From NCBI GenBank assembly GCA_000182565.2, contig KQ257471.1: a stretch of 64,000 nucleotides of DNA. One strand, given 5' to 3'. Positions 7,240 through 47,055 of the stretch are shown here, piece by piece (position 1 is the first letter of the stretch; each line of letters starts with the position of its first letter). The DNA comes from Spizellomyces punctatus DAOM BR117 (lineage: Eukaryota). Both the position numbers and the translations under genes were made by a program. The notes below the pieces were generated by a model. It saw only the letters and a program-made list of their open reading frames with translations. It searched no databases and was not told where the DNA came from.

Positions 7240-7311
7240 GTTATATTGTAGCTAGGAAGTAAAATTTGAGGAGCTTGGCAAAAGACGAAGTGCTCGACGG
7301 GCGATAAAACT

Positions 7312-16063: not shown

Positions 16064-17301
16064 TCATATCGTCTGCATCCGCATTTCATTCCGGTTCGAT
16101 TCTGTGCCGCCGTGCATCGAATTCAGAGGAGTTTCTTGCATTCGTGCCTCCACCGCGTCGCTGTAGATGAGCGCACTAAGGTCTCTCAAACGCGTTTGTT
16201 CAGCTTCCACCTGTGCATCACTGCGCTTGTTCGAGTGAGCTGAGGCATCCGGTGCAGGCGGTTGTGTTACGGGGGTTTGTTGTTCTTCTGGCGACGTCTC
16301 AGCGTTCCCCCTTTGGGGGGACGCGCTGGGGCGAAGCCCATCGGCGCGCTCCTTCGAGCGCTGTGAGCTGTGGTCTGTAGCCGTTGTGGGTTTCCTTGGG
16401 GGTGCTGTAGCTGTTGTGGGTTTCGTTGTGGTGCTGTAGCTGTTGTGGGTTTTCGTTGGGGGTGCTGTAGCTTGTGTGGGTTTCCGTTGGGGNNNNNNNN
16501 NNNNNNNNNNNNNNNNNNNNNNNNNNNNNNNNNNNNNNNNNNNNNNNNNNNNNNNNNNNNNNNNNNNNNNNNNNNNNNNNNNNNNNNNNNNNTGGGTGCT
16601 GTAGCCGTTGTGGATTCTGTTGCGGGTTGGTGGGCACGTCCACATTCAACACTGTTTTTCCACTGCCTGTTTCTCCTTTCGATCCATCTACCAATCAGAT
16701 CGTGCCAATTATTGATGGCCTGTGTCCACTCCGTTCGCCATTGCTGTTGTTGTTGGTCCCCCTTGTCCGGATGATAGTGTCGAAGGACATTCCTATGCGC
16801 GCGGCTTAATTCCTCCCGTGTGTTGGCTTTCATCTGGAAAAACCGAGCCAAGAAGTCCATGTTGGCATCGGTGATCTTTTTGCTTGACAATAGCGGCGGA
16901 TTGGCATCGTATTGCACTGGTGTTTGTTGGTGAGGAATAGCAAATTCTTCAGTGCCTCGACCAGCAGAAGACTGTCCACCACGCTGCTCGGTCGTCCTCT
17001 GTCGTTTCTTGGATCTCGTCCCCGGATCTGGTTGGACATCCGGTTCCTTGCGACGCTTGCCGTTTTGAGCACGACCAGTGGTGAGCTTGAACAGATGGTC
17101 GTAATGGGCAAAGAGGAGATCGTAGAGTGTGTTGTAAGAAGCACTCGGCACGGAGATGTCGCCTACATGGATGAGGTGGAATTTCTCTCGACACGTTTGG
17201 TGAACAGCATCTTCTACAAGGTTTGTGCTTTTCAGGGACGTCCGCACAGCCGTCGTTAGCTCATCGATCAGGGTCATTTTTTGTGGCGTTAGTATCCCCA
17301 T
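16064..17301 (-). CDS. J-domain (DnaJ, HPD) protein with Thr/Ala/Pro tandem-repeat linker; spans an N gap
   Basis: ELSRAHRNVLRHYHPDKGD...WTQAINNW; ATG at 17301; the C-terminal part is probably ORF 16064-16645, frame across the gap uncertain. Confidence 0.72.
16372..16620. repeat. ~30-bp tandem repeat inside the J-domain gene, with 100-N gap at 16493-16592
   Basis: Recurring GTGCTGTAGCTGTTGTGGGTTT units on both sides of the gap. Confidence 0.85.
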
Positions 17302-18030: not shown

Positions 18031-18411
18031 TCCAGTCCTTTCTTCTAAGACATGCTTCAAACCATAGGATGTGCTTTTTGACATACTTCGGTGTACCCGA
18101 AACACCTTTGGAATTAGTTGTATCCCCCTTTCAATGTTAGATATATTGAACATCTTCACATTATCTTCTAAAGTCGGTCTTTCTTTTGACGGCTTTCTCA
18201 ACGATGTCCCAGCAAGTTCATTCCCAAATTGAGTTAATAATACATTAGAAGGAAGCCTCGACAGTACATTCTTGATTTCATCTAAGGTTACCATTTCGAT
18301 GCTTTTTTGTATGTTTATAAAAGCTCCCAGAAAAAAAACATTTTGTGCGTTTATTGCATTTTTCTCAATAACTGCAATTATTGCATTTAGGAACAGCGAT
18401 AAAAATCTCAA
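17914..18411 (-). CDS. Hypothetical protein with SYGLKH motif (true start probably the internal MVTLDE)
   Basis: STSYGLKHVLEERTGLYMMNGDFIMAMMLLGY, a motif I recall from uncharacterised viral/phage proteins. Confidence 0.6.
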   Translation of the reverse strand: MRFLSLFLNAIIAVIEKNAINAQNVFFLGAFINIQKSIEMVTLDEIKNVLSRLPSNVLLTQFGNELAGTSLRKPSKERPTLEDNVKMFNISNIERGIQLIPKVFRVHRSMSKSTSYGLKHVLEERTGLYMMNGDFIMAMMLLGYRCNFRGGVNPLMNCQVIDATS

Positions 18412-21056
18412 CTGACTATCAACAAACCATGACTGTAGAAATCACCAAACATAAGCAACCAGAATCTGAAGGAACCTTCGTTACTATGGACAAGAAACTG
18501 AAACTCGACCAAAAGCCAAAGATGTTATTCCGTAAAGACTATTTTGGAATTGATAATATTATCAAGTGGGATGTTGAAGAGTATGTCAATAATCACAAGA
18601 AGTATCCCTACTTGACAGAGTTCATTGGTGCTCTACCGGATGACCATGAGATAAATGCCTTTGTGGATTTCGACCTTTCTTATGCCACAGAAGAAGATTT
18701 ACCCTCGGATGAGGAAGAAGATGCTATTCAAATTTTTGTTCTGCAAACTTTTGAATCCTTATTTTTAAATGATCTTTTTTCTTACCGATGTGCATTTTGC
18801 AGGAAAGGCTTTGCGTCTAAGAAAGAGAAGAGTGAAGAGACAGGAGAATATGTAGAGAAGGGCAAGTGGAAAGTATCGTTCCGCATCTTTGCTGACCTGC
18901 GCACCACTCATAAAGAGATGCGAAACCGCTTGCTTCACTACTTTCCCGACATGAGCAAAGCGCCTGCTTGTATTCGTGATAAGACTTTTGAGCATGATTC
19001 GTTTTTTGACCCTTCCGTCTATGAAAAAAATCGCAAGATTTGCTGCGTGGGGAAGAGAAAGAGCCAATATGACTCGCGGGTTCTAGAACATCTTGATACC
19101 GCCGACCCATTAGAAGCCTTCTTGATTCAACACATCGACAAGTATGCAGAATGTGCGGAGTGGGCTATTCAAATGGCAGATCAAAAAGAAGCCCCAAAAA
19201 AGCAAAAGACCTCTACAAAGTCCACGAAGAAATCCAATGATTCTTTTGAGCAAATGGCAAAGGAAGTTATTCTGGAATCATTTCCTAATGTGTACCTGCT
19301 TCGAGATCTCGGGAAAGCCGATCAATTAGATCATGGAATCAATGTCTTTGTCAAGACAAAACACTGCTTTCTCATCGACGCCAATCATGATGTATCTGTG
19401 GCTACTATGTACTTCTCCATCACGAAGTCAGGAATCAAGTTTACATGTAAGCAATGCGATGAGGAGACCGATGCAAAGCCTCACAAGCATACTGGCATCA
19501 AAAAATTGTTCACTCGGATTAACAGTCCTATCCAATCAGATGATGCTCTTTTACATGCATTAACTTCTCCTAGCCATCTCGGTATTGCCCGGGCACTAGC
19601 GGCGAAAAGCGAGGGTGACATTCTCTTCGATGGTAGCAACTTTTGGATGTTTCGGAAGCAGTGGGTTATCATAGCCGATCAAGTTGTCCGGCTATTTATG
19701 AAGAACACGTTGAACCCCCAGTGTGAGCAGTACGTAACAGAACTTTATGATCGTCTATCTGAAGAAGAGGATAAAGACAAGAAAGCCGACATCTTGGAAC
19801 AAATAAGGAAAGTCGAACGCGGGCACAAACTTTTAACTACTAACACCGACATAAAATCCATCATCTCTTGCCTCAAAACGGAGGTGTACAACGAGGGCTT
19901 CCTGAAATGCCGAGATAACAACCCTAATATTATTGGATGCAATAACGGGTACTTTGATCTGCGGGATTATACTTTCAAGCAGTACACAAAGGACATCTTC
20001 ATCACGCATACTGTTGGCTATGACTACTTTGAACGGGATGAAGATTTTGACCCAGACACATATCAGCAAGTATTAGGTGTCGTGGCACAATACTTCCCAG
20101 AGGATGACGAACGAGAGATCGCTCAAATATTCTCAGGATACTGTCTACGTGGTGATCATAAGGAGAAGATCTTTTGCGTTTTCACCGACAAGAGCGACGG
20201 CTTCAATGGTAAGACAAAGTTTGCTCAGATGATCACCATTGCTATGGGAACTTATGCGACCGAAGGTAACAACGATCATCTATATGTAAGTACCAGGTTC
20301 TCGAACCAAAATGGTCATAATGCAGCAATGTTTGCCCACGAAGGAGACCGACTGGCAATCTATGATGAGATGGATGAAAAGAAGACTATAGACACGAAAG
20401 AGATGAAAAGACGCAATGGAGGCGCTACTAGAGGCAAAGGTTGTAGACCATCTTCAAAGGAGTTTGAGTTTGTCGATTTCATGACAAAAATGATCATGAT
20501 TTTTAACAATGGAAACCAACCGAAATACGATACCAGTGATAATCCTTTCCTGGAGCGGATGCTTGTATTGCCTTTTCGAGCCAAGTTCCTTAGTCCCGCT
20601 GAGTACGAAAAATCGGAATATCAATACAAATTCTTAGCAAATCCTCACATCGACGAACGTTTCTCTGTGTGGCGTCCTTACATACTCAAGTGGATGATTG
20701 AAGGGCACAAGAAGTACATGGAAAAAGGATTTAATGACATCCCGGCTGAATGCCGTAAGTGGAAGGAAGATGTCACCAAAGACGTTGATAACATAGAAGA
20801 ATGGATCAATGAACACATTGAAAAGGTTGATGATCTCGACTGCTTTGTTACTACAGCAGAGATCCGAGGAAAAATGGATCGAGAAATCCAGGAATACTTC
20901 AAAGGTAAAAAAGGTCATCTTGTGGAGCGATTGAAAGTCTACCTTGACAATTATGTCAAGGAATCTCGACTGAAAATTGACGAGTGGAATGTGGATGGGA
21001 CACAAAAGGACAAGAAATTTACAGACTTTTTCCGTGGATACATGATCAACTGTTAG
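18381..21056 (+). CDS. AEP primase-polymerase fused to D5-like superfamily 3 helicase
   Basis: AFVDFD (motif I), KVSFRIF (motif II variant), FDPSVYEKNR (motif III), C/H cluster, D5_N IGCNNGYFDL, Walker A GFNGKT, LAIYDE; first ATG ~18429. Confidence 0.92.
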   Translation: MHLGTAIKISTDYQQTMTVEITKHKQPESEGTFVTMDKKLKLDQKPKMLFRKDYFGIDNIIKWDVEEYVNNHKKYPYLTEFIGALPDDHEINAFVDFDLSYATEEDLPSDEEEDAIQIFVLQTFESLFLNDLFSYRCAFCRKGFASKKEKSEETGEYVEKGKWKVSFRIFADLRTTHKEMRNRLLHYFPDMSKAPACIRDKTFEHDSFFDPSVYEKNRKICCVGKRKSQYDSRVLEHLDTADPLEAFLIQHIDKYAECAEWAIQMADQKEAPKKQKTSTKSTKKSNDSFEQMAKEVILESFPNVYLLRDLGKADQLDHGINVFVKTKHCFLIDANHDVSVATMYFSITKSGIKFTCKQCDEETDAKPHKHTGIKKLFTRINSPIQSDDALLHALTSPSHLGIARALAAKSEGDILFDGSNFWMFRKQWVIIADQVVRLFMKNTLNPQCEQYVTELYDRLSEEEDKDKKADILEQIRKVERGHKLLTTNTDIKSIISCLKTEVYNEGFLKCRDNNPNIIGCNNGYFDLRDYTFKQYTKDIFITHTVGYDYFERDEDFDPDTYQQVLGVVAQYFPEDDEREIAQIFSGYCLRGDHKEKIFCVFTDKSDGFNGKTKFAQMITIAMGTYATEGNNDHLYVSTRFSNQNGHNAAMFAHEGDRLAIYDEMDEKKTIDTKEMKRRNGGATRGKGCRPSSKEFEFVDFMTKMIMIFNNGNQPKYDTSDNPFLERMLVLPFRAKFLSPAEYEKSEYQYKFLANPHIDERFSVWRPYILKWMIEGHKKYMEKGFNDIPAECRKWKEDVTKDVDNIEEWINEHIEKVDDLDCFVTTAEIRGKMDREIQEYFKGKKGHLVERLKVYLDNYVKESRLKIDEWNVDGTQKDKKFTDFFRGYMINC

Positions 21057-22862: not shown

Positions 22863-22912
22863 TGATACAGTGCATCAGATAAGCCATTCGGCTTATCTGA
22901 TGCACTGTATCA
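22863..22912. repeat. Perfect terminal hairpin: 23-bp stem, ATTC loop
   Basis: TGATACAGTGCATCAGATAAGCC-ATTC-GGCTTATCTGATGCACTGTATCA. Confidence 0.97.
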
Positions 22913-23102
22913 CCTGCGTGCTCAGCTTCTTCACCAAAGAACCAAAGCGAGGTGCCAGGCACCTTGGGAATGACCCCTAAACAGTTACATGGAGTTCCCA
23001 CCACCTCTACATTGCTGCTGCAGCCGAAGTGGACAAGGATTGAATCCTGCAAAAAGTCCGAGAAGATGGTACCCCTCGTTTGATTCTCCTTGCCTGGATA
23101 AG
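22913..23102 (+). pseudogene. Decayed internal fragment of LTR family C
   Basis: Reverse-complement homologue of ~43900-44095 (LSFFxKEPKRGAxHLGNDP...LILLAWI), with many CpG>TpG/CpA changes. Confidence 0.88.
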
Positions 23103-23593
23103 TGTGACAGAATTCTTCTGTCAGTGCTAGGGTTATACTGGTTAGATGTGGTTCCAAACTAGTAGTCACATGACTTTGCTGATGGTGTCAGCATTCATTT
23201 GACCAGAATTAGATAAATAAGCAGATTTAGCCATTTCTGGCTAAATTAGATGAGTATTCTGACACACTGGCATCTGCCCCTTTCAATCATGTGGCACAGT
23301 GTATTTAGGATGACTTGTCTCACTTCTGATTGGCTATAAGTGGTGCAATAGGCTGACAAATAGTTTAGGATGACATGTATGAGTTCTGATTGGTTGCAAA
23401 TGGTGCAATAGGCTGACAAAGAGTTTAGGATGATGTGGGTGAGATCTGATTGGGTAGTTAGGATATAGCATTTGTCAGCCCCTTTGTCTATAAAAAGAGG
23501 ACCTCTCTGAGGCCCCTCAAAAGGAAAATAACAAGTAGTAACCAAGTCTTCCCTAGTTTTCTGTTGTCTTCTTGTCCCTGCTAGCCTGTTACA
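23103..23593 (+). repeat. 5' LTR of element A
   Basis: TGTGACAG...TGTTACA; near-identical to 27384-27996 apart from 60-bp unit number. Confidence 0.95.
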
Positions 23594-23659
23594 TGGCAGC
23601 ACCACCTTAGACAACAACCCCAGACTCTTAGACCTTCTGTGAGAGATCAGAAGGTAAGA

Positions 23660-23830
23660 TCCCCAGAGAACCCCAGAAACCCAGAGAATCCCAGAACCCC
23701 AGAGAACCCCAGAACTCCAGAGAACCCCAGAACTCCAGAGAACCCAAGAACCCCAGAGAACCCCAGAACCCCAGAGAACCCAAGAACCCCAGAAAACCCA
23801 GGAACCCCAGAGAACCCCAGAACCCCAGAC
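23660..23830. repeat. 18-bp tandem repeat (CCAGAGAACCCCAGAACY, ~9 units)
   Basis: Translates as (PENPRT)n. Confidence 0.95.
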
Positions 23831-23873
23831 CACCCAGGCTGCCTACCAAGAAAGCAAGATCCATGTAGTAGAG

Positions 23874-26800
23874 GTGGCTCCATACTCTTTAAGTACCCCC
23901 AAAGGGCCAAGGATTCCCCAGAGTCACTTGCTGACTGTGCAAGGTAGAATCCAAGGAATCCCAGTAACCATTCTCCTGGATAATGGGGCAAACCAACTCT
24001 ATGTGTCACAGTCCTTTGTCAAGAAGGCACAACTGGTGACTCATTCTCTCTCTGGAGCAGAAATCTCTATGGCTGATGACAGAAAGCACCAAGAAATAGG
24101 CTTTGTCAAAGGTCTTCAGTACTCAGTAGGAACCTACACAGAACAGTCAGACTTTATAGTAGCCCCAATCAAGTTTGACTTGATCCTGGGTATACCTTGG
24201 TTTGCCTGGAGGAATCCCAGTATCAACTACAACAAGAACACTGTGACCTTCACCACCTCCCAGCACCCCAGAGTCAGATGGTTTGTTAAGCAGGCCAGCT
24301 CTTCCAACAAATCCCAGAAGTCCAATCTTATCACCATGGTATCAGCAAAGATGTTGGCCAGAACACTGAAGAAGAGGACAGCAACAGCTTTTGCTGTGTA
24401 TCTCAAGAACCCTCAAGATACCAGCACCCCTCCAGACACCATGGATTCCAAAGTCACCAAGCTTCTTGAAAACTATCAAGATGTCTTTGCTGAAGAGCTT
24501 CCCCCAGGACTTCCCCCTGAGAGATCAGTAGATCACAGAATTGAACTCAGTGACCCCAACCAGACCCCCTGGAGACCAACCTACCACCTCTCTTCTTTGG
24601 AGTTAGAAGAACTGAGGAAGCAGCTTTCAGAGCTTCTGGAGGCAGGCCACATCAGACCATCCAAGAGCCCATTTGGAGCACCTATCCTCTTTGTTAAGAA
24701 GAAAGAAGGTTCTTTGAGGATGTGTGTGGACTACAGGGCTCTGAATAAAATCACCATCAAGAACAGATATCCCCTCCCTAGGATTGATGAGCTGATGGAT
24801 AGGCTGAATGGAGCCCAGGTGTTTACAAAGCTAGATCTGAAGTCAGGCTATTACCAGATCAGAGTCCACCCAGAAGACATCCCCAAGACAGCCTTCAGAA
24901 CCAGATATGGTCACTTTGAGTTCCTGGTCATGTCCTTTGGAATGACCAATGCCCCAGCCACTTTCATGACTTTGATGAATGATGTCCTTAGATCCTTCTT
25001 GGACATCTTTGTTATTGTCTACCTAGATGACATCCTCATCTACTCCAAGACCCCAGAAGATCACCTGCACCACCTCAAGCAGGTTCTGCAAGCCCTCAGG
25101 CAGAACAAGCTGTATGCCAACCCCAGCAAGTGCCAGTTCTTCAAGCAAGAAGTAGAGTTTCTTGGCCAAGGTACTCTCACATGAAGGAGTCAAGCTTGAC
25201 CCCAAGAAAGTGCAGACTGTTCAAGAATGGCCCACCCCTCAGAGTGTCACTGAAGTCAGACAGTTCATGGGCCTGGTGAACTACTTCCATAGCTTTCTGA
25301 AGGACCTGGCAGAGCAAGCTGCACCATTGACAGACCTGTTGAGAAATGACAAGCCCTGGACCTGGTCTGAACCTCAGGAGAAAGCTTTTCAGGAGCTGAA
25401 GGATATGGTCACCAAAGCCCCTGTACTCAGACCCTTTGACCCAGCCTTGCCTACCACTGTCTTCCCTGATGCCTCAGGCTATGCAGTCGGTGCATGGCTT
25501 GGACAGGATGATGGGAAAGGCCATGAGACCAGTTGCCTACCACTCCAGGAAGATGGCCCCAGCAGAGACCAGATATGACACCAGAGAACAAGAGCTGTTA
25601 GCCATCCATGATGCCCTCAGAGTTTGGAGGCCCTACCTGGAAGGAACCCCCTTCAAAGTTATCTCAGACCACCAGTCCCTCAAGTGGCTACAGAACCAGC
25701 CCTTCTTGACCAGAAGACAAGCCAGATGGGTCATGAATTTCCAATCTTTTGACTTTGAGATTGGCTATGGCCCAGGAAGACTCCACACAGTGGCAGACAT
25801 CCTGTCTAGAAGACCAGACCTGGCCCCAAGATGCATCAAGTGCAAGGCCTTGGTGACAGCAGAGTTGAATGCTGTGACCCACACCACCAGCACCCTTCAA
25901 GAGAGATTGAAGACCAGTACCACAGAAGACCCAGAACTTCAAGAGCTCCTCCAAGCTTTGGATGACCCCAGGAGACCAGAAGACCAGCAACAAAGGCTCA
26001 AGTACCTCAGCCATCAAGATGGGTTACTCTATTTCCAGGACAGGATCTTTGTTCCTAGTGACCCAGACCTAAGGTTGAGCCTACTCCAAGAAACTCATGA
26101 CACTCAGTATGCTGGACACTTTGGCATCACCAAGACCCATGATGCCCTAGCAAGGCATTACTACTGGCCAAGGATGTACAAGGACATTAAGAAGTATGTC
26201 AAGTCTTGTGATTCCTGCCAGAGAAGCAAACCTAGTCAGCAACCACCAGCAGGCTTGCTGCAGCCCCTCCCAGTACCCAAGACCAGATGGAGCCAGATCT
26301 CCATTGACCTGATCCCTGACCTACCTATGACTTCCTCTGATCACAATGCCATCTTTGTCATTGTTGACAGATTGTCAAAGAGAGGCCACTTCATCCCTAC
26401 CACCAGCAGAGCCTCAGCCAAGAACCTGGCCCTGCTCTTCTTGAAGCACATCTTCAAGCACCATGGCCTCCCAGAAGTGATTGTATCAGACAGAGACACC
26501 AAGTTCACCAGTTCATTCTGGTCCAACTTGATGCAACTCTTAGGCTGCAACACCCTCCTAGCCACTGCAAGGCACCAGCAGACCAATGGACAGGCAGAGA
26601 GAACCATCAAGACTTTGAAGATCTACCTCAGAGCTTTCCTGGAGTACAACATGAAGAATTGGGAAGATCTTCTCCCCTTTGCTGAGTTTGCCTACAACAA
26701 CAGTGTCTCAGAAACCACAGGCTTTACCCCATTCTACTTGGAGAATGGCCAGCATCCCAGGACCCCAGCAACACCACCAGGAGAAAGCCATGATCCTGAA

Positions 26801-27367
26801 GCAACAGACTTCCACCAGTATATTCAGCAACTGCTTCAAGTAGCCAAGGCCAACATGGTCCTGGCCCAAGAAAGACAAGTTCAGCAAGCCAACAAGTCTC
26901 TCAGCAAGGCCCCAAGCTACCCCCTAGGCTCCAAAGTTTGGCTATCTAGAGAAGGTATCACCCCAGAAGACGAAGCCCAGAGGCCAGCCCAGAAACTTCT
27001 TCACCCCTGGCTTGGACCTTACAGAATCAAGGCCAAGGATGAATTTCAGAATTACACCCTGGAGCTCCCCAGCACCATGAAGATTCATCCAGTGTTCCAT
27101 GTGAGACTCCTCAAGCCTTACCTGGACCCCACAGAGGACTTCCCTACCAGACCGGTACCCCCTGAGCCTGAGCCAATTATCCAGCAAGGAGAAGAGTTTT
27201 GGGAAGTTGAGAAGATTCTGGACCACAAGATCAGAAGGAAGAAGAATCTCTACCTCCTCAAGTGGAAAGGCTATCCCTCCTCTCAGAACACCTGGGAACC
27301 AGAAGAAAACCTCCTACCCCATAGCAGAGAAATCTTGAAGGAGTTCCTAGCCCAGAAGGGAGCTTAA
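23874..27367 (+). CDS. pol: pol of element A (PR, RT, RNase H, integrase, chromodomain), two +1 frameshifts near 25170 and 25521
   Basis: [32 protein letters not shown]...[23 protein letters not shown]...TWEP. Confidence 0.93.
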
Positions 27368-27383
27368 TCTTAAAGTGGGGGAG

Positions 27384-27996
27384 TGTGACAGAATTCTTCT
27401 GTCAGTGCTAGGGTTATACTGGTTAGATGTGGTTCCAAACTAGTAGTCACATGACTTTGCTGATGGTGTCAGCATTCATTTGACCAGAATTAGATAAATA
27501 AGCAGATTTAGCCATTTCTGGCTAAATTAGATGAGTATTCTGACACACTGGCATCTGCCCCTTTCAATCATGTGGCACAGTGTATTTAGGATGACTTGTC
27601 TCACTTCTGATTGGCTATAAGTGGTGCAATAGGCTGACAAATAGTTTAGGATGACATGTATGAGTTCTGATTGGTTGCAAATGGTGCAATAGGCTGACAA
27701 ATAGTTTAGGATGACATGTATGAGTTCTGATTGGTTGCAAATGGTGCAATAGGCTGACAAATAGTTTAGGATGACATGTATGAGTTCTGATTGGTTGCAA
27801 ATGGTGCAATAGGCTGACAAAGAGTTTAGGATGATGTGGGTGAGATCTGATTGGGTAGTTAGGATATAGCATTTGTCAGCCCCTTTGTCTATAAAAAGAG
27901 GACCTCTCTGAGGCCCCTCAAAGGAGAAAAATAACAAGTAGTAACCAAGTCTTCCCTAGTTTTCTGTTGTCTTCTTGTCCCTGCTAGCCTGTTACA
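27384..27996 (+). repeat. 3' LTR of element A
   Basis: Two additional 60-bp units relative to the 5' LTR. Confidence 0.95.
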
Positions 27997-28123
27997 GGAC
28001 GTAACCTTCCACAGTAGTGGAGAAGTCTCTCTCACGAAAAATGGGTGACAAATTGCGAGCAGCATATGCTGGAACAATGCATATTACCTGGAAGGAACCC
28101 TGAAACCCCAGGGCTTTCCAGAT

Positions 28124-30917
28124 ATGGAAGTCTGTGCAACAGAGGTATTACCTGCCCTTGCACATGCCAGACTCAGACACGTAGGACAACATGTCCTAGG
28201 AAAGATGGCATCGGCTATGCTTGGCTGGCCCATAGTGGGGGCTCACAGTCATATGGACTGTGAGGCATGCATACTCAGAAAATCATCCCATACACCATTT
28301 CCAGCAGCCAACAAGGAACCAAGAGAACTTTGTGAGCTGATTCACTCCAATCTACAAGGACCCTTCCGAATTACAGGCCTGACTGGAGAATGCTATGCTC
28401 TCACATACATTGAACACACCTCGAGGTATGGCATTATCTACTGCATCCCAAACAAGGAAGCAGAAACCATCCTCTCCAAATTCAAGGAGTATAAGGCATG
28501 GATTGAATGCACCATGGACAAGAAAATATGCACTGTGCATACGGACCGAGGAGGTGAATATAATGGTGTCTTCCACAAGTACCTCACGGACTGTGGGATC
28601 CAGCACCAACAAACTATGGCATACTCAAGTCAACAGAATGGTATCGCTGAGCGCTGGAACCATACCAGCTTAGGGTGAGTATGCACCATCTTTGTGGACA
28701 TGAAACTGCCATGGAAACTGTGGGCCATCCTAATACAAATGGTGACCTACCTCCACAACCTTACCCCCAACTCCTTGGGCGATAAAACTCCCCATGAGCT
28801 GCTGTTCCAATGCCACCCCAACGTCATGCACCTGAGGCGCATCAGCTGCGTTGCCTATGCCCACGTCCCATCTGCTGGTAGGGACAAGATGGCCAACAGA
28901 GCTAGGAAAACATACCTAGTGGGGTATGCCCAACAAGATGGCACCAAGGCCTACCTTGTCTGGGATCCGGTACGCAACACCATCGTGACCTCCAGGGACA
29001 TCAAATTTAATGAAGATGCCCCTCTTGAACTCAAATATCAGCAGGACCCTAGCACTATGGATCTGCTGGATGAGACCACTTCCAATGACGATCAGGAGTA
29101 TCAAATTGACTACATCATGGATGAATGCTGGACTCGCGTGCACAAGCCCGAATACCTTGTGAAATGGCTATAAGGACCCTACCTGGGAACCCCGAGTCAC
29201 TGTCGATGACACACAAGCACTGGACACATGGGAAAACCGCATCCAAGCATACACCGTCGACGCACATACAGGGAAAGTAAACCCTGAGTCCCTCACCTTC
29301 AAACAGGCGATGGCTACCCCTGATACCAATGATTACCTGATAGCCTGCCAACAGGAAATTGAATCCCTGAAGGCACACAGCACATACGTCACTGTACCGC
29401 ATCCGCCCCATAAGCGCATAATTGGCACAAAGTGGGTTTGCTGCAAAGTATTCAACCCTGACAGCACATTCAAGAAATACAAAGCCAGAGCAGTATGCCA
29501 AGGCTTCACCCAAAGGCCAGGAATCGACTTCAATGATATGTATTCCCCAACCTTACCACTTCCAATCCTCTGCCTCTTCCTCATGTACATGGTCCAACAT
29601 GGATTGGACATACACTCAATGGATGCCATCACTGCTTTTCTCAACAGCAAAATGGACAAGGAAGTCTTCATTGAGCAATTTGAGGGCTTTGAACTACCCA
29701 ACAAGCCAAGGAAAAGCTGGGTACTGATGCTGAAAAAGGTGCTATATGGCCTGAAGCAGTCACCCCTCCTCTGGTACCAAACCCTTAGAACTGCCCTGGA
29801 AGAACTCGGCTACCGCATGGTGGAAATAAGCCCCTGTGTGTTCTACAAGTATGCCGCGCCAGGGCGCACCAACTCCGACATTCAGCCATCCCTGTCAATG
29901 CTCATAATCATAATGATCTTCATGGATGATCTACTGATCCTCACCAAGGATCCTGAACAAATGAACAAGTCAAAGAAGGAGCTTCATAGTAAGTTTTCCT
30001 TTATGGACCAAGGTCACATAACCAACCATCTAGGACTGGCATATGAGTATGACATCTCCGCGGACATAAGGACCCTCAAGTTCTCCAACCTGATGTATAT
30101 TGACAACCTGCTTGACCATTTCAAATTAATGAACTGCCACGCAATTGCCACACCATATGCTGTGTCCACACACAGTCAACAGATGCAAGAATCAGCACAT
30201 TTCCCTAACCCCAAGATATACCAAGAAGCAGTGGGGGCCCTTACTTGGGCTTCCATCTCATGGCGATGGGATATTGCCACTGCGGTCGGATATGTTGTGC
30301 ACAACGTCAGCACACCTACCCAATGTGATTGGGAGGCAGTCAAGTGTATCTTCAAATATCTGAAAGGAACAAGGGACTTTGCCATTACCTACACATCCCT
30401 GGAGAAAGATCCCTGCGGTCTCAGGGTGTATATGGATGCGGACTATGAAGGCAACCTCTCGGATTGCAAATCTACGTCTGGCTTGCTAGCTACCTGGAAT
30501 GGCTACCCCATCCATTGGAAAAGCAGCAAGCAAACCTGTGTTGCCCATAGCACCACAGAAGCAGAGTACATCGCAGCAAGTGTGGGATTCAGAGAGATCC
30601 TCTGGATATGCCAAATCCTCGCGGATGTGTTTAGGCCCATTGCTGGCTTCCAGCTCCTACCCACCCCTCTCCATATTGACAATGAGAGTGCTGCCACTTT
30701 AGCCCAAACCAAGGCCATAAACCAACACATGAAACATATTGATGTGCATTACCATGGTATACGTGGAGGCATTGCGGATAAACAAATTGCAATTCTGGAC
30801 ACGGATACGAAGGAGCAGATGGCTGATTACTTCACCAAGCCATTAACCCAGGAGGATCATAATCGATTGAGACAGAGAATCCTGAGTGGACTGGATAATA
30901 TTCAAATGTGCGCGTGA
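28124..30917 (+). pseudogene. pol: Copia pol (integrase, chromodomain, RT, RNase H) with stops and frameshift
   Basis: ORF pieces 28124-28678, 28694-29173, 29310-30917. Confidence 0.9.
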
Positions 30918-31000
30918 CCCACGTACGTGGCAGCAAACTTTGTGGAAGTGCAACTGGATGATAATGGTGGAATGCAAAAAATGAATATGAATAATATTAT

Positions 31001-31870
31001 CTACACAGCAACACCCAAACCACCCAAACCACCAAGTCCGCCTGCTCAGCCTGCACCACCAAATCCACCAAAGGGACCAAAAGGACCATCCCAACCCTCC
31101 AAATCTTCACCCTCCAACTCCTCCTCTGTCTCCTCCTCCTCCTCCCCTCTCATCACCTCTGCAAACTCCTCCCCCTCATCCGTCACCACCTCTTCCAAGA
31201 GCCTGGTCAGCTTCGCGATCTCATCACGTACTGCCCCAGCAGCCTTCTTCTTTGCTCTGTGGGCTTTCTCACGCTGGACTTCACTGGGAGGGAAGGCAGG
31301 CAGCCTTCCTCTTCTCCAAGATCTATTAAGGGCCAGATCTTGGAGACCACAATATGTGCCCAGCACCCCCAAACAGATGGGACTGTGTACGGGGAGTGAC
31401 CGCATAACATCTCATTCAGTCCTGGCCAGGCCCAAATGCCTTTGCAACACCTCTTCCCGGTCTTTCCAGTGCTGCAAAAAGGTGCACCAATGAGCTGCCT
31501 CTACAAACTCCTCCTCCACTGCACTCAGCTCGCACGCAGGCTTGGGTACCTTCCCCACCGCTGTGGCCACCTTTCTCTTGGCTGTCAACACCACAGCCTC
31601 AAAAACCCCTCTCCTGCGTCTCTCCTCCAAAACAGGAGTCTCCCTTGCTCTGCCTGATCGTCCCGCACTCGACCCCACACTTGGCGTGGTGGTCTTGGCC
31701 TCTGAAGGAGGAGGGGCTTGGAAAAGCCCCGGTTGCTCCGTAGGGACCAAAGGGACATTGGAACTGGCCACGGAGCTCTCCGCCGTCATCTTGCACAACC
31801 GCCGCAAGAACAAGGTACGCAAAGTTTCACTGGGAACTTTGCCTTTCCCCTTCTCTTCCTTGGGGGCCAT
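31001..31870 (-). pseudogene. Antisense ORF 3' of copia pol (~290 aa, interrupted by TGA)
   Basis: 31412-31870 and 31046-31405 are in one frame; MAPKEEKGKGK start, acidic and Gly-rich tail. Confidence 0.55.
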
Positions 31871-32200
31871 AATACAAAAAAAAAAAAAACTGGAAACACC
31901 ATTAGCAGCTAGCCAAATGAGCTCTGCAAGTCCACAATGCTGTTGTGGCAGGTCTTACAGTTGATAGAAGTCTGTGTGAAAGTGTAGAAAGTTGGTGGGC
32001 GATGGGTTCTTGTCTTGTAAAGAAAAATAGCAGTTCAGACTTTTGACAGGTCTGAGTGGGGGTGTTAGCAATCACAGGTAGCAGACCTCTAAGCCACTTA
32101 ACCGCTATGCCATGCGGGCGCATCTTCACTGCGCCACGCGCATCGCTAGATTTCTTTTGCGTTGCTAGCTAGTATATTCAATAGTGACTTCTTAGCATAC

Positions 32201-32739
32201 TGTAAGGTAGACCTGTCCTTTGGTATTCGCACGCAAGTGCAAACTTAGATTTTTGCAACGCGTCTCTCATATCCCCATATATAGCTATAGTGATCATGTA
32301 GCCATGTATGGCCAAAGTATGGCACAGCACGTAACAGTAGTTAGATTATGTAAGCCCCGCCGCACCAATGACCTGTCAAAGTCGTTCGGTTCTGCGGCAG
32401 CCCCGTAGTTGGAAGATCATTTGTCCCTTTATTTTGCTAGTGCCAATCACTTCCGATTGGTGCAAGAGGGACTGCACTGGCAGAGGTGGGAAATCTCATG
32501 CCGACACCCTGCCGAAGGAGGGAGCAAGCATAAAAGAGCGCTGCTCCAAAGCCCCTCAAGGAGGAGGGCAGGAAGCAAGGAAAAAACTAGAAGAACAACT
32601 AGCCTAGTTAGCACGCAAGGAACTATCAATAGTTCCCTTTCTCTTGTATTAACAACAAAGTCTTTATACAGCCCTCTCGCAGGGCCCAACAATTTGCAAG
32701 AAAACGTTGACTGAAGCAATCTGGTCGATTGACATTACA
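32201..32739 (+). repeat. 5' LTR of element B
   Basis: TGTAAGGTAG...CATTACA; diverged copy at 48114-48654. Confidence 0.93.
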
Positions 32740-35700
32740 TGGTAGCACCACCTGAGACTACCACACATGATACGGAATCAGAAGACATTCGACCCTCTAT
32801 CATCTTCGACCCATTCGCCTCTGATAAAAACTCAGAAGCTTCTACCTTCAGCCCAGAGCCCCGTGAACAATCCAAAATGTCCAAAGATGATCACCCGTTC
32901 ATCACCATCAAGGAAGAGGGAGAGGACCCAGTCTTCCAATTCGAGGCTGTACCATGGAACAACCAGCCGCCGCAAGAACCAGGGCCCGCACCGATGCCAC
33001 CCCCACCACAGCTGCCAATCCCTCCAGGCACTGGTCATCTAGACAGGCTCCTGGTAACCCTCACCAACCTAGCGCAACAGCAAGCATTCGGGAACGTGAT
33101 CACGCAACAAGCTGCGGCCAATGCTGCAGCTGCCCGCCGCATTGAGCGCCAGCAAGAAATGATGATTAATGCAATGCTCAGCACACTCAGGGCATGGTTG
33201 CATATGTACAATGGCACACCAGATGCTCGTCAACTAGAAGAGTTCCTAGGAGCCCATAGGAGCTACCTTTGTGTTGCACATGCTAATGAAGGAAGAAGAT
33301 CGGATGTGGAGGCACATATCCAAACCTATCTCACAGGTCCAGCTTTAGATTGGTGGCACAACTGGGCTAGCTTCAACCATCATGCCAATACCCTTGAGGA
33401 GCTGGAAACTGCCTTTGTTCACAGGTTCATCCCCCATGACTCTCGAAATAATCTCCACCAGCGGTTCTGGAACTTAATCATGGGCCAGAGTGTCACAGAG
33501 TACACCCAGGCCTTTAATGCCCTTGTGGGAGAGGATATCTTAGGCCATCGACTTACAGGCTGACCTAGAATACCAGATGCCAACATTCTGTGATACTATA
33601 TGGAGGGCATATGCTGAAACCGTGGAGTAGGAGAAGCATTATATAATCATCTCATCTCAATGAAAACAATGCTGTCACTAATGAATGATGAAGAAGATAT
33701 ATTGGTCCCCCTACAGCAGAGCCTTCATATGGCATATAATGATCAGGGACTCATCAATCGAATTGGTGCGCCCGCACCATCCTCAACCACACCAAGTCGC
33801 CTGTCCACTTGTGGACGAGGATCCTTCTGTGGCTGCATGACATCCACAGTAACCCGAGGTGCCACTTGGCCAGTAACGAGAGCAAGCTCTGGCATTGTTT
33901 GCAATAACTGCAGAGGAAGAGGGCATTATGCTCGTCAATGCCCATCCACTCCAGTACAAGCTGCCCCGTACCCCACGCAGTCGCCACGAGGTCCAGGAAG
34001 TCCTCGTGGACCCGGACAACCCTCTACCAGAGGTACAGGACCAGGAAGGGGATGTGGGGTCAGAATGTCCCAATCCCAGGTTCAATCAACAACAACTGAA
34101 CACCCTCCAATTGAGTACCAATCCATGGAGGTTGACGAGCCCACCTGGGCAGAGCAAGAGGAACCATCCTCAATTGAAGAAATCTTTGAGGATGAATGAA
34201 CGGAGGATTTTTAGCAAAGCCGCTGACTGCCCTGATCCCTTCAATGGCTATGGTACACATGCACGAGGTCATTGTACCATGACTACCAGATCAGGACCAG
34301 AAGGAAGAACCATTACATTGCAATGACCCCAAGATCAAAAGTCCTGAGATTGAGGAACCCTTCATTATCCATGGATGTATTGGCGATAAGTTTGCTAGAA
34401 TATTATTCGACACTGGATGTACAAGCTACCTCATCAACAAGAAGTTTGCAAACTGACATCATTTCGAACAGTATGCTCCAGAGCAACCCCTTCGGATAAA
34501 ATGGGGCGAAGAAGGTTCTCAGAGCCTATCAAACTTGATGATAACCTCTTCACTAGTCTTGTCCAATTCACAACCTCGAGGATTCATAAACCTCGGGAAG
34601 ATCCCTTTCGTTGTAGCAAACATTGGCATTGATGCAGTGATAGGGTTACCTCTATTAAAACTCCTTAAGCAAGTCTCCATCGATTGGACAGCACAACAAC
34701 CAACCCTTCGGTTTAACTTTAACAATGTGAGCCATAACATCGAAGTGCAATGGACCAGCAGAGCATGGAAGCCACTGCCTCATATAATGCCGCCCATCTG
34801 AGAGGATTCGGCAAACATCCCTCATGGTTTATTCAACCCAAGATGATATGGGATGAATGCTCCTCCAAGCGATTCGACAAAGATATCAAATGTAACAGAT
34901 ACCTGACAGCATGGAGGATCCAACCAGAGGAAGTCGATGATCGCTATGTGAGTTTCCATGTAGCAAGGCTCTACGCAAAAGGCAAGAAAAGAAAAGGAGA
35001 GTTTGACACAGCCGATAATGGATGCACAGGATTCCTTAGGGTTACACTCAATAAATAAAACAACACGCTTTTTACCGAGAATGGCGAGTTCCCCCCAGAC
35101 AGAGGGGAAGACAATTTTAGCATTGAACTCCTTCCTGGAGCTAAACCACTCACATACCCCTTACGGCATATGAGTACCAATGAGTTAGAGGAGCTTCATC
35201 GACAGCTCAATGACCTCCTAGCAAAAGGACGAATATGACACTCCACTAGCCCCTGGGGAGCCCAGATAGTGTTTGCCAAGAAGAAGGATGGGGGATTATG
35301 AGTATGTTTAGACTATCGAGGACTAAACGCCATAACCAAAAAGGACTGGACCCTGCTACCAAATCTACAAGAGATGCAAGATTGTGTAGCTGGTGCAAAG
35401 TTCTTCACAAGTATCAACATCAAAGACACTTACCATCGCATTAGAATAAACCCATGCGATGTGGAAAAGACCGCCATTCATACACGATTTGGACACTTTG
35501 AGTATCTGGTAATGCCTTTCGGATTAACTAATGCTCCAGCTGCATTTCAGCGCCTCATCAACAAGATCCTTGGCCTGCATTATGATGACCTAGTCCTCGC
35601 CTACCTCAATGACATCCTGGTATTCTCCAGGACAATGGAGGAACACCAGAAGCATGTAGATATTGTGCTTCAAGTCCTAACTGAACACAAACTCTATGTG

Positions 35701-37562
35701 AACCCAGCCAAGTGTATGTGGGGACAACCTGAGGTTGAGTTCTGTGGACATATTATCAGATGAAATGGAATACGGATTGCTCCTAGCAAGATCCTAGCTG
35801 TCCAAGACTGGCCACAGTTGCGAAACCATCATGATGTCCAATGATTCTTAGGATTAACTAATTACTTCATTGACTTCATCAACCGATATGCAGAAATTGT
35901 GATGCCCCTCTCACAACTACAATCTGGAAAGAAAACATGGCAATGGAAAGAAGAAGAAAAAGCGGCATTCGAAAAGATCAAAAATGCTATTACCACTGCA
36001 CCTGTCCTGGTGACCTTCGACCTGACTAAAGACACTTTCATCTTCACTGACTCATCAGGATTTGCGATCGGCAGATGGCTAGCCCAGACCACAGACCCGG
36101 AAGATGAGATACCATCTCCGCTGCTGAAAACCATTCAAGAACTTAAAGTGCTACCCCATCTATGACCAGTCTCATTTTACTCCCGTAAGATGAAACCTGC
36201 TGAGATGCAGTATCCAGTTCATGAACAGGAACTTTTAGCCCTAGTCAAGTTCTTGAAACATAACTGCCCATATCTGATCGGTATCTTCTTCCACACCTTC
36301 ACTGACCATAAAAGTCTGATCTACCTCCAGATGCAGCCACATCTTTCCTGACGACAAGCAGGATGGGTTGAAACATTACAACAATTTGACATGATGATCA
36401 AATACATGCCCGGACAAGTTAACCATGTTGCGGACATTCTTTTGCAGAACCCACACTATGCACCCCAATGTACAGAGTGTCAACAATGAATCCAGTTGCA
36501 AGCCATATTAGTTGCCAGCACCGAGACCATGCTAATGCCATTTAATCACAAAGAATGGATTCAGCCACTGAACCAAGACAATTATGCCCTTACAATAATC
36601 AAGATGTTGAAGACAACACCAGCCCATGCCTTAGGATCAAGGCTACAATGCTATGCAATACAAAATGACCTCCTAACTTATGAGAAGGACTGGCTATATG
36701 TACCAGAAATGGAGCATACTAGAATCTTACAGCAATATCATGACAGCCTAATAGATGGCTCACACAAAGGCCAACAACACACATTAGCTAAAATTCTATG
36801 AAAATTCTACTGGCCTCACCTCGAACGTGACGTCTATGCATACATTCGGACTTGTCCTGAATGCCAACAATACAAGAACCCTTTATGAAAGCATGGGTTT
36901 TTGCGACCATTACCAATCCCTAATAGTCGATGGCATACAATCAGGTTTGATATGACTTATATGCCTCCGGGCAATAGCACCCATGGATTCCAACCCGACA
37001 CCATTCTTTGTTTTGTCAACTACTTGACTAACTGGACCATCCTCGTACCAACACTCCAAGCTTCCAACACTTGTGATCTTGCACAGACATATTTGTCCCA
37101 AGTCTACAAGAATGTAGGAGCATCCAGGATCTTTATTACTGACCACAACCTGAAAGCCCTTTCCAATTTTTTTGAGGCCTTCTGTAAAGTCCTTGGTACG
37201 AAACACCAATTTGCTAGCACCCGACACCAACAAACTGATGGCAAATGCGAATGGATGATACAGACAGTAAAGTCCATATATCAGCTGTACCTCAACTATG
37301 CAGCAGATAATTGGCCACAGTATCTTCCTCTCCTCAAGTTCACATTGAACAACACCCCGAATCAACATGGACTGACACCATTCAAGGCAGATATTGGGCA
37401 AATGCCCTTACAAGTGGATGGAGTCATTACTTCCACAGAACTCCAAATGATGAAACCTATCGACCGAAATGAGATTAAGGACATCAAAAAAGCAATGGAT
37501 GAAATAGCTGTAATTGTTCAACACCACATGAAAGAACTACAGGATAAATATGCAGAACACTA
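32739..37562 (+). pseudogene. gag-pol of element B (many TGA stops; YLDD mutated to YLND)
   Basis: Fragmented ORFs 32739-33563, 33660-34199, 35374-35763, 35899-36165, 36496-36801, 36901 onward. Confidence 0.88.
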
Positions 37563-38161
37563 TGTAACGGATTTTTTGTTGGTAGACTACAGTAAAGACA
37601 ACTTGGGTCTCCTAGCAGGTTGTGTGGGTGTCCGTACTAGGAATCGTAGTCTCCAAATCCTTTCTTTGGGCGTCGGTAGCGACTTGAGGGCGAGAGGCAA
37701 GGAGAGTCGGTTAGTTGTGAACCGAGCAGGATTTAGAGGCTTCGGTACGGGTGATCAGGCCGTTGAAGCGCTCTGTTAGGTTCCTGTTAACCTAAGATTG
37801 GAGTTGAGAAGCGAGTTATGGGGATTTTTGTCGCTACGGCTTCTGCCCCCGACTTATTTTATTGAATACATCCTTTTTATACAAGATTCTTGGATAAACT
37901 GTTAAACTAAACTAAACTAATGGGTGTCGCTGCACCGCAACTGATTTATTGGTGGCGGTACCGATCTCTTCCTTTTCCGCACTGGCTCGGGCCTCCACAG
38001 GTTGTACGAGGCACGCTGAAATCTAATGCGCCAATTGCCATTCTCCGAACCGGTTTTTTCGGTCGCGGTAACCCAATCGGTGGAGTTGGTCACGCGATTC
38101 GTGCTTCCCGCGTCCGATTTGGGCTTACTCGCGATCTCTCGAAGACGTCCTCGTCGTTACA
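37563..38161 (-). repeat. 3' LTR of element C
   Basis: TGTAAC...GTTACA, near-identical to 46456-47055. Confidence 0.95.
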
Positions 38162-38218
38162 TCCCCCCTTTGAAGAGCCAACGCACCGGCGCTCCGAGCG
38201 GGGGTGTTGGGACGTCAA

Positions 38219-46783: not shown

Positions 46784-47055
46784 TTGGATAAACTGTTAAA
46801 CTAAACTAAACTAATGGGTGTCGCTGCACCGCAACTGATTTATTGGTGGCGGTACCGATCTCTTCCTTTTCCGCACTGGCTCGGGCCTCCACAGGTTGTA
46901 CGAGGCACGCTGAAATCTAATGCGCCAATTGCCATTCTCCGAACCGGTTTTTTCGGTCGCGGTAACCCAATCGGTGGAGTTGGTCACGCGATTCGTGCTT
47001 CCCGCGTCCGATTTGGGCTTACTCGCGATCTCTCGAAGACGTCCTCGTCGTTACA
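46456..47055 (-). repeat. 5' LTR of element C
   Basis: Adjacent to PBS; ends at the TSD. Confidence 0.95.

Follow-up and report, generated by a model that had tools for sequence, protein, structure and literature searches.

How can an LTR retrotransposon lose nearly every CpG and keep conserved proteins? The question is raised by element A, which occupies positions 23103 to 27996 (4894 bp, GC content of 47.8%) in a 64,000-nucleotide stretch of DNA from contig KQ257471.1 of the soil chytrid Spizellomyces punctatus DAOM BR117 (the window; GC content of 46.7%). A first-pass annotation, made by a model from the letters alone, had counted about three CG dinucleotides here, near 25488, 26971, and 27153, and there are exactly three, at those sites. 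Element A is probably a recent, non-autonomous copy of a chromovirus family that was recoded to almost no CpG, driven by CG methylation of transposons.

Anatomy and flanks of element A

Element A is a Ty3/gypsy LTR retrotransposon of the chromovirus type, with all features on the plus strand. It has two direct LTRs with TG...CA ends (5′ LTR, 23103 to 23593, 491 bp; 3′ LTR, 27384 to 27996, 613 bp). The 5′ LTR contains 60-bp repeats from about 23304, each with an ATTGG motif (CCAAT in reverse), and the sequence TATAAAAAG at 23489 to 23497. A primer-binding site that begins with TGG (23594 to 23611), directly 3′ of the 5′ LTR, and a polypurine tract, AAAGTGGGGGAG (27372 to 27383), adjoining the 3′ LTR, were read from the sequence; an Rfam scan of the window gave no matches and hence no tRNA for assignment of the primer-binding site. 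Across 491 aligned bases, the LTRs show a single mismatch; a 2-base indel and two additional 60-bp repeat units in the 3′ LTR (a 120-bp expansion) are the only other differences. Compared with the 47 differences in 546 bases between the LTRs of neighboring element B, this degree of identity indicates that the copy was made recently. There is no second copy of element A in the window, the sole extra match being 75 bp of reverse transcriptase similarity to element B.

Pfam matches to RVP_2, RVT_1, RT_RNaseH(_2), Integrase_H2C2, and rve follow one another in the order PR-RT-RNaseH-IN, with SH3_Tf2-1 and then a chromodomain (PF00385, Chromo; E value of 5.5e-19; residues 601 to 650 of a 655-aa open reading frame [ORF]) at the integrase C terminus; E values across these domains range from 1e-5 to 1e-43. 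Frame 0 (23658 to 25169) encodes the protease (LLDNGA) and reverse transcriptase (YLDD), frame +1 (25171 to 25520) the reverse transcriptase connection and the first half of RNase H, and frame +2 (25523 to 27367) the second half of RNase H, the integrase (HHCC zinc finger, DDE core, and SH3-like domain), the chromodomain, and the stop. The first frameshift, at about 25170, involves 1 extra base and 2 substitutions in the window copy (25169 to 25174); the second is 1 extra C at 25521, which is missing from the contigs of sequencing runs X1 and X9. There is no in-frame stop in about 1230 codons, and pol is collinear with protein P0001 over about 1100 residues at 63 to 67% amino acid identity.

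The annotation had described the motifs as intact. That description holds for pol, in which all domains are present, and fails for the two frameshifts, gag, and the start codon. No Pfam match to gag was found in element A; only a 64-bp leader and an 18-bp tandem repeat (23658 to 23835; about 10 units, with a PQRTPE-like peptide), which sits at the expected gag position, lie upstream of the protease, and no ATG occurs between the 5′ LTR and the protease. Because it has no gag, no upstream ATG, and two frameshifts, the window copy cannot be autonomous, and it appears to be a deletion derivative of its family. The departure of run X1 contigs from the window sequence at 23667 and 23694 suggests that gag was deleted internally in the window copy. 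This divergence also hints at sequence at this place in other family members, and a loose end of X1 at 23594 represents another insertion context.

No 4- to 6-bp target-site duplication surrounds element A (ATAAG on the left versus GGACG on the right), and its flanks derive from two different elements. On the left is an old fragment of a retrotransposon like element C of the window (22891 to 23102, plus strand; 74% amino acid identity to residues 565 to 638 of the C ORF; CpG observed/expected ratio [o/e] of 0.37). On the right is a degraded copia-like element (27997 to 32265, plus strand), with GAG-pre-integrase, rve, SH3, and RVT_2 in at least three frames. Together, flanks from two elements and the missing duplication point to inter-copy recombination or to an assembly join through a repeat. 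Contig depth in X1 was about 18 to 24 over element A, about 3 over the copia flank, and 40 over the C-like flank, values that might point to multiple copies, although contig depth does not equal copy number.

CpG depletion and codon choice

The three CpGs of element A compare with 277.9 expected from its C and G content (o/e of 0.011); the o/e of the whole window is 0.755. Two CpGs lie at codon boundaries (25488 to 25489, GTC-G; 26971 to 26972, GAC-G), where runs X1 and X16 have T and A, respectively, and the third lies within a CCG codon (27153 to 27154), where G is replaced by A in runs X1 and X9. An element that evades CG methylation would have almost no CG in either promoter or body, and element A has 3 CpGs in 4894 bp and none in either LTR, for which 20.1 and 24.0 were expected. 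The borders of the CG-poor zone coincide with the LTR tips: outside element A, the nearest CG lies 26 bp upstream of the 5′ LTR, at 23077, and 4 bp downstream of the 3′ LTR, at 28000. Of all stretches without CG in the window, the three longest, of 2411, 1483, and 847 bp, are inside element A, and the next longest, 409 bp, spans an N run. Element A has an excess of TpG (1.42) and CpA (1.25), and its UpA is also low (0.59).

As the annotation had stated, arginine is encoded by AGA (53 codons) and AGG (21 codons), with no CGN codon among the 74. NCG accounts for 1 of the 338 Ala, Pro, Thr, and Ser (TCN plus AGY) codons. C is the third base in 44 to 47% of codons that precede A, C, or T but in only 2 of the 318 that precede G, and codon boundaries carry 2 CpGs, compared with 100.8 ± 6.1 (minimum, 81) in 2000 synonymous-codon shuffles. 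When 17 relatives were compared, 20 columns had arginine in at least 70% of them; element A retains it in 16 of these columns and has no Cys, Trp, His, or Gln in the other four. Its overall arginine content is 6.5%, versus a mean of 6.7% in relatives. The CpG-less state was reached by synonymous choices without loss of conserved arginines, and it is well supported that the purge occurred while Pol stayed under purifying selection. Four-fold degenerate sites before G have A 80 times and T 33 times; elsewhere, they have T 71 times and A 55 times (chi-square test, P = 4e-5). Before G, the main replacement is therefore A and not T, the deamination product.

A sister version of the family was present in the contigs of X1, an independent run. 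It is about 99% identical to element A (divergence of 0.5 to 1.8%), is the only other family version found, and lacks both frameshift bases; without the extra base at 25170, its pol frame would remain open. It differs from element A at 36 positions, 23 listed and 13 unlisted. It is non-CpG at all three window CpG sites, and none of the 20 further listed differences creates a CpG. All differences between 23800 and 26628 are listed, so the X1 version is CpG-free for 2829 bp. An active, CpG-rich family member would have marked the window copy as simply decayed; instead, the only other version found has fewer CpGs. The 21 listed coding differences comprise 8 synonymous and 13 nonsynonymous changes, a split close to neutral in which no selection is visible at that shallow level. 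Likewise, 3 of the 23 listed differences create a CpG in the window copy, matching the 16% predicted for random mutation, so short-term purging of new CpGs is not apparent. Runs X9, X16, and X19 cover element A only in part; three contigs of X19, an RNA-seq run, match at about 99% over 114 to 203 bp, a match that does not by itself amount to transcription. Soil, rhizosphere, and root metagenomes gave matches of small share.

More distant relatives do not share the depletion. In the integrase region, the CpG o/e of 80 metagenome relatives ranged from 0.23 to 1.44 (median, 0.82), and that of element A was 0.017, more than 10 times below the lowest of them. A scan of metagenome contigs with the element A protein gave 55 pattern matches, none of which was confirmed as same-family DNA, and an alignment-based metagenome scan likewise found no same-family DNA, only relatives at 32 to 44%. 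The near-identical LTRs, the borders at the LTR tips, the exclusive use of AGR, the avoidance of C before G, the normal arginine content, and the CpG-free sister support the conclusion that the lack of CpG characterizes the lineage, was already present before this insertion, and does not reflect decay of the window copy. The same evidence sustains the proposal of the first-pass annotation that a lineage purged CpG under purifying selection.

CpG decay in the neighborhood and the origin of the purge

Other elements in the window have fared differently. The copia-like element and element B are broken and have CpG o/e values of 0.40 and 0.44, and element C, which is young and CpG-rich (1.08), has an uninterrupted 2528-aa ORF; the o/e of element A is 36 to 100 times below those of other window elements. 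Pfam searches of the first 1100 and last 392 residues of element C returned nothing significant to explain its CpG richness. Transitions in CpG context make up 30 of the 47 differences between the element B LTRs, and of 29 CpG sites only 6 are intact in both; the per-base rate of CpG decay in these LTRs was about 22 times (roughly 20-fold) that of other sites. Compared with the X1 consensus, the C-like left flank has 17 listed differences, 14 of which turned CpG into TpG or CpA. The annotated picture of three outcomes side by side, with B and copia decayed, C intact, and element A purged, was thus upheld. In the early-diverging fungal lineage of Spizellomyces, 5mC is scarce and 6mA is dominant. 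In S. punctatus, 5mC is reported to be confined to transposons and was mapped in CG context (PMC12695648). The host gene at 59381 to 60451 encodes a product with 92% identity to an S. punctatus protein.

These observations suggest the following scenario. The family would have lost CpG from its LTRs and leader as well as inside and between codons while Pol stayed conserved, the driver being CG-specific cytosine methylation of transposons by the host. Lineages bearing CpG would have been silenced or damaged by CpG mutation and left fewer descendants, and the surviving lineage would give the methyltransferase no substrate. The chromodomain integrase presumably targets integration to heterochromatic nests of transposons such as the present one, and there a CpG-free element would escape both CG methylation and decay by 5mC deamination. 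With CpG almost entirely gone, CG-directed methylation and CG decay would be without a target in element A, and we infer that the purge may have been selected as an escape from methylation. More tentatively, and with somewhat less than even confidence, we suggest that recoding of the whole element (promoter, leader, and about 1230 codons) is an evolved counter-defense against CG-only methylation, one that would permit transposition from methylated nests and confer immunity to the approximately 20-fold CpG hypermutation.

Mutation by itself could have brought the family to an equilibrium, through a long stay under about 20-fold CpG hypermutability with ordinary selection on Pol, passively and with no benefit of escape. 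The rate of CpG decay in the element B LTRs, the excess of TpG and CpA, and the neutral rate at which new CpGs arise are all consistent with this explanation, which we nevertheless consider unlikely. The CpG number that it predicts for element A is very low already, about 10.6 (o/e of 0.04), a rough estimate, possibly off several-fold, that draws on a single LTR pair with 29 CpG sites and 10 transitions. The observed numbers are lower still: 3 in element A (P = 0.007) and none in the 2829 bp over which the X1 version was compared in full, for which 6.4 were expected (P = 0.002). The number of CpGs seen is only modestly under the mutation-only equilibrium of about 11. Conversion of CGN to AGR requires a transversion beyond deamination, yet all arginine codons are AGR, and C before G was replaced mostly by A. 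Further, once CpG is gone, methylation is gone and the pressure to finish the purge disappears. Finally, not one of the 80 relatives is under 0.23.

Horizontal arrival, in which the CpG-free state evolved in a more CpG-suppressed host and the family entered Spizellomyces recently, has a lower probability, about that of an outside chance. The family is isolated: among the matches listed, the closest protein, P0001, is 63% identical and all others are at most 48%, and no Spizellomyces-named relative is among the 120 best matches of either length class. P0001 is known as a protein only, so the duration of the CpG-free state can be judged from codon usage alone. The copies are young, and RSCU shows no correlation with host codon usage, as sampled in three exon-like ORFs (r = 0.02; 635 codons), a tiny sample with possible intron read-through. 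Against arrival from elsewhere, GC content equals that of the window, codon preference resembles that of element C, a chromovirus resident in the genome (r = 0.61), and neither a donor nor a near-identical copy in another host was found. The metagenome relatives never come near such depletion, and the host itself shows a CpG-directed pressure of the kind able to produce it.

Selection at the RNA level, with a CpG-sensing restriction factor analogous to vertebrate ZAP removing CpG-containing transcripts, would fit a transcribed unit that is CpG-free throughout, including U3 (in the 3′ end of the RNA), as well as the low UpA. It is very improbable, as element C thrives at an o/e of 1.08 in the same genome and CpG decay at the DNA level is directly visible in the window; we know of no ZAP-like CpG-sensing RNA factor in fungi. 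Post-insertion decay of the window copy in place, whether through 5mC deamination or RIP-like hypermutation, matches the fate of neighboring elements and the TpG and CpA excess but was rejected, with hardly any probability left to it, on the virtual identity of the LTRs, the persistence of CpGs 4 and 26 bp outside their tips, the lack of stops, the retention of conserved arginines with none changed to Cys, Trp, His, or Gln, and the equally CpG-free independent version. An assembly or contamination artifact was also rejected, given the presence of the sequence in independent runs of several studies, the LTR identity, the boundaries, and the sister version.

Known systems and implications

Chromoviruses are the chromodomain-bearing Ty3/gypsy elements (Metaviridae) of fungi, plants, algae, and vertebrates. 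Element A resembles them in its LTR-PBS-(gag)-PR-RT-RNaseH-IN-chromodomain-PPT-LTR layout, in the Chromo and SH3_Tf2-1 domains at the integrase C terminus, and in amino acid identity of 32 to 48% to hundreds of them and 63% to one; it differs in its CpG o/e and in having neither gag nor a target-site duplication.

In vertebrates, the decay of L1 and ERV elements and the ZAP-linked CpG suppression of lentiviruses reach o/e values of roughly 0.1 to 0.3; old copies of CpG-poor transposons lose coding capacity, and in viruses the pressure is on RNA. Element A shares with them a CpG shortage ascribed to methylation-driven mutation or selection and the excess of TpG and CpA. However, its depletion is about 10 times deeper and includes both coding and non-coding sequence, and it has a conserved Pol, near-identical LTRs, and a fungal host with low global 5mC. 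The LTRs of ONSEN/ATCOPIA78 in Arabidopsis reportedly contain few CG and CHG sites; plants methylate CHH as well. Common to both elements is the idea that fewer methylatable sites would weaken maintenance methylation, but in ONSEN the shortage is limited to the LTR, whereas element A is CpG-free throughout and 5mC in its host is reported in CG context. [quoted passage not shown] The CpG-directed transitions in element B, the copia-like element, and the C-like fragment are similar, but RIP wrecks the copies that it targets; since element A has no such protein damage and its LTRs are identical, it looks like a survivor or escaper and not a product of such a process. At the level of titles and abstracts, the openly accessible literature searched described no LTR retrotransposon devoid of CpG throughout.

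CpG depletion of a transposon is usually taken as a scar of silencing, in which old, dead copies decay. Element A shows the opposite pairing, near-total depletion with near-identical LTRs, a conserved Pol, and an open-frame sister. Dating by LTR divergence is biased in such genomes: CpG transitions account for 30 of the 47 differences between the element B LTRs, and this clock stands still in an element without CpG. If the purge was adaptive, synonymous recoding can defeat a defense based on CG-only methylation, which would also account for the survival of a heterochromatin-targeting element at its landing sites. Work by Medina et al. in 2020 is said to have made S. punctatus amenable to genetic transformation. 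If the counter-defense is real, element A would represent a naturally occurring "methylation-proof" mobile element and would offer a direct handle on the role of 5mC in early-diverging fungi.

CpG depletion and structure of element A

In element A (23103 to 27996; 4,894 bp, GC content of 47.8%), the CG dinucleotide occurs exactly three times, at 25488, 26971, and 27153, as the first-pass annotation had estimated by eye, while 277.9 are expected from base composition. The observed/expected (o/e) CpG ratio is 0.011 for A versus 0.755 for the entire window. The two long terminal repeats (LTRs) contain no CpG (20 and 24 expected), and the window's three longest CG-free intervals all lie within A. 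Since the nearest CGs outside the element are at 23077 on the left and at 28000 on the right, 4 bases beyond the 3′ LTR, the depleted zone coincides with A. GpC is mildly low (o/e, 0.79), and TpG (1.42) and CpA (1.25) are high. The CpG depletion of A is thus genuine, lies where it was described, and greatly exceeds what chance would produce. In the coding frames (23658 to 27364), the most overrepresented dinucleotide is ApG (o/e, 1.60).

The LTRs of A are direct repeats with TG…CA ends (5′ LTR, 23103 to 23593; 3′ LTR, 27384 to 27996), and a TATA box lies in the LTR at 23489 to 23497. A TGG-initiated primer-binding site (PBS) directly follows the first LTR, and a polypurine tract, AAAGTGGGGGAG, precedes the second. 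The encoded domains are an aspartic protease, reverse transcriptase (RT), RNase H, integrase (H2C2 zinc finger, core, and SH3-like domain), and a C-terminal chromodomain; A is therefore a Ty3/gypsy chromovirus. Its Pol is collinear with the closest database protein, a metagenome protein (P0001), at 63 to 67% identity over ~1,100 residues with no internal stop. Apart from two additional 60-bp repeat units in the 3′ LTR, the only differences between the LTRs are one mismatch and an indel of 2 bases. The repeat difference is enhancer-like copy number variation inside one element; the 60-bp units, each with ATTGG (reverse, CCAAT), occupy 23304 to 23460 in the 5′ LTR and 27585 to 27860 in the 3′ LTR.

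LTRs, PBS, polypurine tract, chromovirus domain order, and chromodomain are all present, but gag and a target site duplication are missing, so this copy is a deletion derivative of its family. The space between PBS and protease holds a 64-bp leader and ~10 copies of an 18-bp repeat, and no in-frame ATG occurs until past the protease active site. Two +1 frameshifts interrupt the coding sequence, one near 25170 and the other at 25521. The bases next to the LTRs do not match (ATAAG, 23098 to 23102; GGACG, 27997 to 28001), and the flanks derive from different elements, a fragment of an element C-like retrotransposon on the left and a copia-like integrase on the right. These features point either to a recombinant of two copies or to an assembly join of two loci through the repeat. 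Neither flank junction was confirmed among contigs of the compared sequencing runs.

CpG loss as a property of the lineage

The first-pass annotation had proposed a lineage-level purge of CpG under purifying selection. This proposal is well supported by the LTRs, codon pattern, retained arginines, a sister version, and relatives: the CpG loss is a trait of the lineage of A and not of this single copy. All 74 Arg codons of A are AGA or AGG (AGR), in agreement with the original reading; CGN codons account for 141 of 194 in the neighboring element C and 17 of 32 in a host open reading frame (ORF). Only 1 of 338 Ala, Pro, Thr, and Ser codons (TCN and AGY) is NCG. C is preferred at third positions (44 to 47%) when the next base is A, C, or T but is found in 2 of 318 codons before G, and codon boundaries contain 2 CpGs versus 100.8 ± 6.1 after shuffling of synonymous codons. 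At 20 columns where Arg is conserved in at least 70% of 17 relatives, A keeps Arg in 16; the four remaining columns hold K (two), L, and S, none a deamination product. The Arg content of the protein (6.5%) is close to the relatives' mean (6.7%). From these comparisons, CpG loss appears to have come at no cost to the protein.

Contigs from an independent sequencing run (X1) match A at ~98 to 99.5%; with a single base fewer at both 25170 and 25521, they are free of the two frameshifts. Contigs of a second run (X9) also lack the base at 25521. The sister version reads T, A, and A at the three CpGs of A. X1 differs from A at 36 positions; among the 23 differences listed, 3 remove the CpGs of A, and the remaining 20 introduce none. 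Because every difference between 23800 and 26628 was listed, the X1 version has no CpG over these 2,829 bp. One contig exits the LTR end of A at 23594 into unrelated sequence, indicating at least one other insertion context, and others that part from A at 23667 and 23694 hint at additional sequence, presumably gag, in other family members at the position of the repeat in A. In an RNA-Seq run (X19), three contigs match A at ~99% over 114 to 203 bp; such matches do not demonstrate transcription and are weak evidence for it.

The two family versions are 0.5 to 1.8% apart. Among the differences listed, coding changes are close to neutral (8 synonymous to 13 nonsynonymous), and the three CpGs of A account for 13% of the total, in line with the 16% expected under random mutation; over so short a time, these differences thus do not indicate any purging of CpG. 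For the age of the CpG-free state, codon usage is the only guide, because the 63% relative (P0001) is known as protein only. Among 80 chromovirus integrase regions from metagenome contigs (32 to 44% amino acid identity), CpG o/e ranges from 0.23 to 1.44 (median, 0.82), and each region has 14 or more CpGs; the homologous region of A has 2 CpGs and an o/e of 0.017.

CpG decay in the neighborhood and alternative origins

The per-element comparison suggested by the first-pass annotation separates A sharply from the copia-like element (CpG o/e, 0.40), element B (0.44), element C (1.08), and the host-gene side (0.91), where an exon-like ORF (59381 to 60451) has 92% identity to an S. punctatus DAOM BR117 kinesin and 81% to one from another Spizellomyces. 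By this comparison alone, the genome would belong to a Spizellomyces near that strain yet distinct from it. In the old element B (LTRs at 32266 to 32741 and 48183 to 48656), the LTR pair differs at 47 of 546 aligned bases; 30 of the 47 differences are transitions in a CpG context, and just 6 of 29 CpG sites are intact in both LTRs. Per base, CpG loss has therefore been ~22-fold faster than change at other sites. The element C-like fragment adjoining A on the left and its X1 counterpart differ at 20 of 186 bases; 17 of these differences were listed, and at 14 of them X1 has CpG where the window has TpG or CpA. Other transposons of this genome thus undergo strong CpG-specific decay. Since 64% of B LTR differences are CpG-context transitions, dating by LTR divergence here would make CpG-rich elements seem far older, in comparison with CpG-free ones, than they are.

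Element C, a 9.5-kb chromovirus (37558 to 47013; GC content of 54%) nested in B, is young and, as first described, CpG rich, although the genome erodes CpGs so fast. Its LTRs have 1 mismatch in 604 with all 44 CpGs intact, and an uninterrupted 2,528-amino-acid ORF (38219 to 45805, minus strand) had no Pfam match in ~1,100 residues before the RT or in 392 residues after the chromodomain. A 603-bp tandem duplication spans 45580 to 46482. In the copia-like neighbor, the SH3-like domain is directly followed by a weak, below-threshold chromodomain-like match (28679 to 29173; PF00385, E = 0.008, first 23 profile positions); copia-type elements do not usually carry a chromodomain. Adjoining the transposon nest, positions 1 to 21100 carry a run of long intronless ORFs (CpG o/e, 0.81) that looks like an endogenous giant virus (Nucleocytoviricota-like) insert in the chytrid genome. 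It includes a 2,039-amino-acid ORF (1132 to 7251, minus strand), a predicted Pox_A32-type packaging ATPase (11985 to 12689; E = 1.9e−7), and a D5_N primase-helicase-like ORF (18372 to 21056; E = 2.4e−6), with N runs at 13004 to 13347 and 16493 to 16592.

Decay at these rates could by itself have brought A to a mutational equilibrium, an explanation we consider unlikely. The estimate, a rough one with rates from the single B LTR pair, predicts ~10.6 CpGs in A (o/e, 0.04) versus 3 seen (P = 0.007) and 6.4 versus 0 in the part of the X1 version that was compared in full (P = 0.002), which favors selection against CpG. At four-fold sites before G, the base taking the place of C is mostly adenine (80) and less often thymine (33), whereas elsewhere thymine (71) exceeds adenine (55) (P = 4e−5). 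Simple C-to-T deamination does not predict this pattern, and conversion of CGN to AGR needs a transversion; both argue that more than raw deamination may have shaped the sequence.

A horizontal origin is a candidate because codon preferences of A are unlike those of three small host ORFs (r = 0.02, 635 codons) and a database protein search found no Spizellomyces-named protein close to its Pol. However, these preferences resemble those of the resident element C (r = 0.61), and we regard such an origin as improbable. Decay of A in place predicts diverged LTRs and depletion overrunning the LTR tips, neither of which was found.

CpG avoidance and host methylation

CpG-poor transposons and retroviruses are well known, either as methylation scars or, in vertebrate viruses, through avoidance of RNA sensors. 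In fungi, copies hit by RIP or CpG hypermutation are destroyed. The LTRs of ONSEN, reported to be scarce in CG and CHG sites, are a partial precedent for the site avoidance seen in A. Element A differs from known cases in that depletion is deeper (o/e of 0.01, zero in the LTRs) and complete across coding and noncoding parts, the protein is intact and copies are young, and the host is an early-diverging fungus with 5mC that is reported, for S. punctatus, to be restricted to transposons. Full-text literature searching, screened at the abstract level, found no description of such an element.

The data show a chromovirus family whose whole sequence avoids CpG through synonymous choices, with conserved Pol and very recent copies. 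Judged from sequence, escape from CG methylation is a plausible reason for the purge. CG methylation of transposons would silence CpG-bearing copies and mutate their CpGs, converting CGN Arg codons to Cys, Trp, stop, His, or Gln; a CpG-poorer lineage would therefore leave more functional descendants. The end point would be an element offering nothing to methylate, and escape of A would follow logically from its lack of CG sites. Through its chromodomain, A is probably guided to insert into heterochromatic transposon nests like the present one, the setting in which immunity would matter most.
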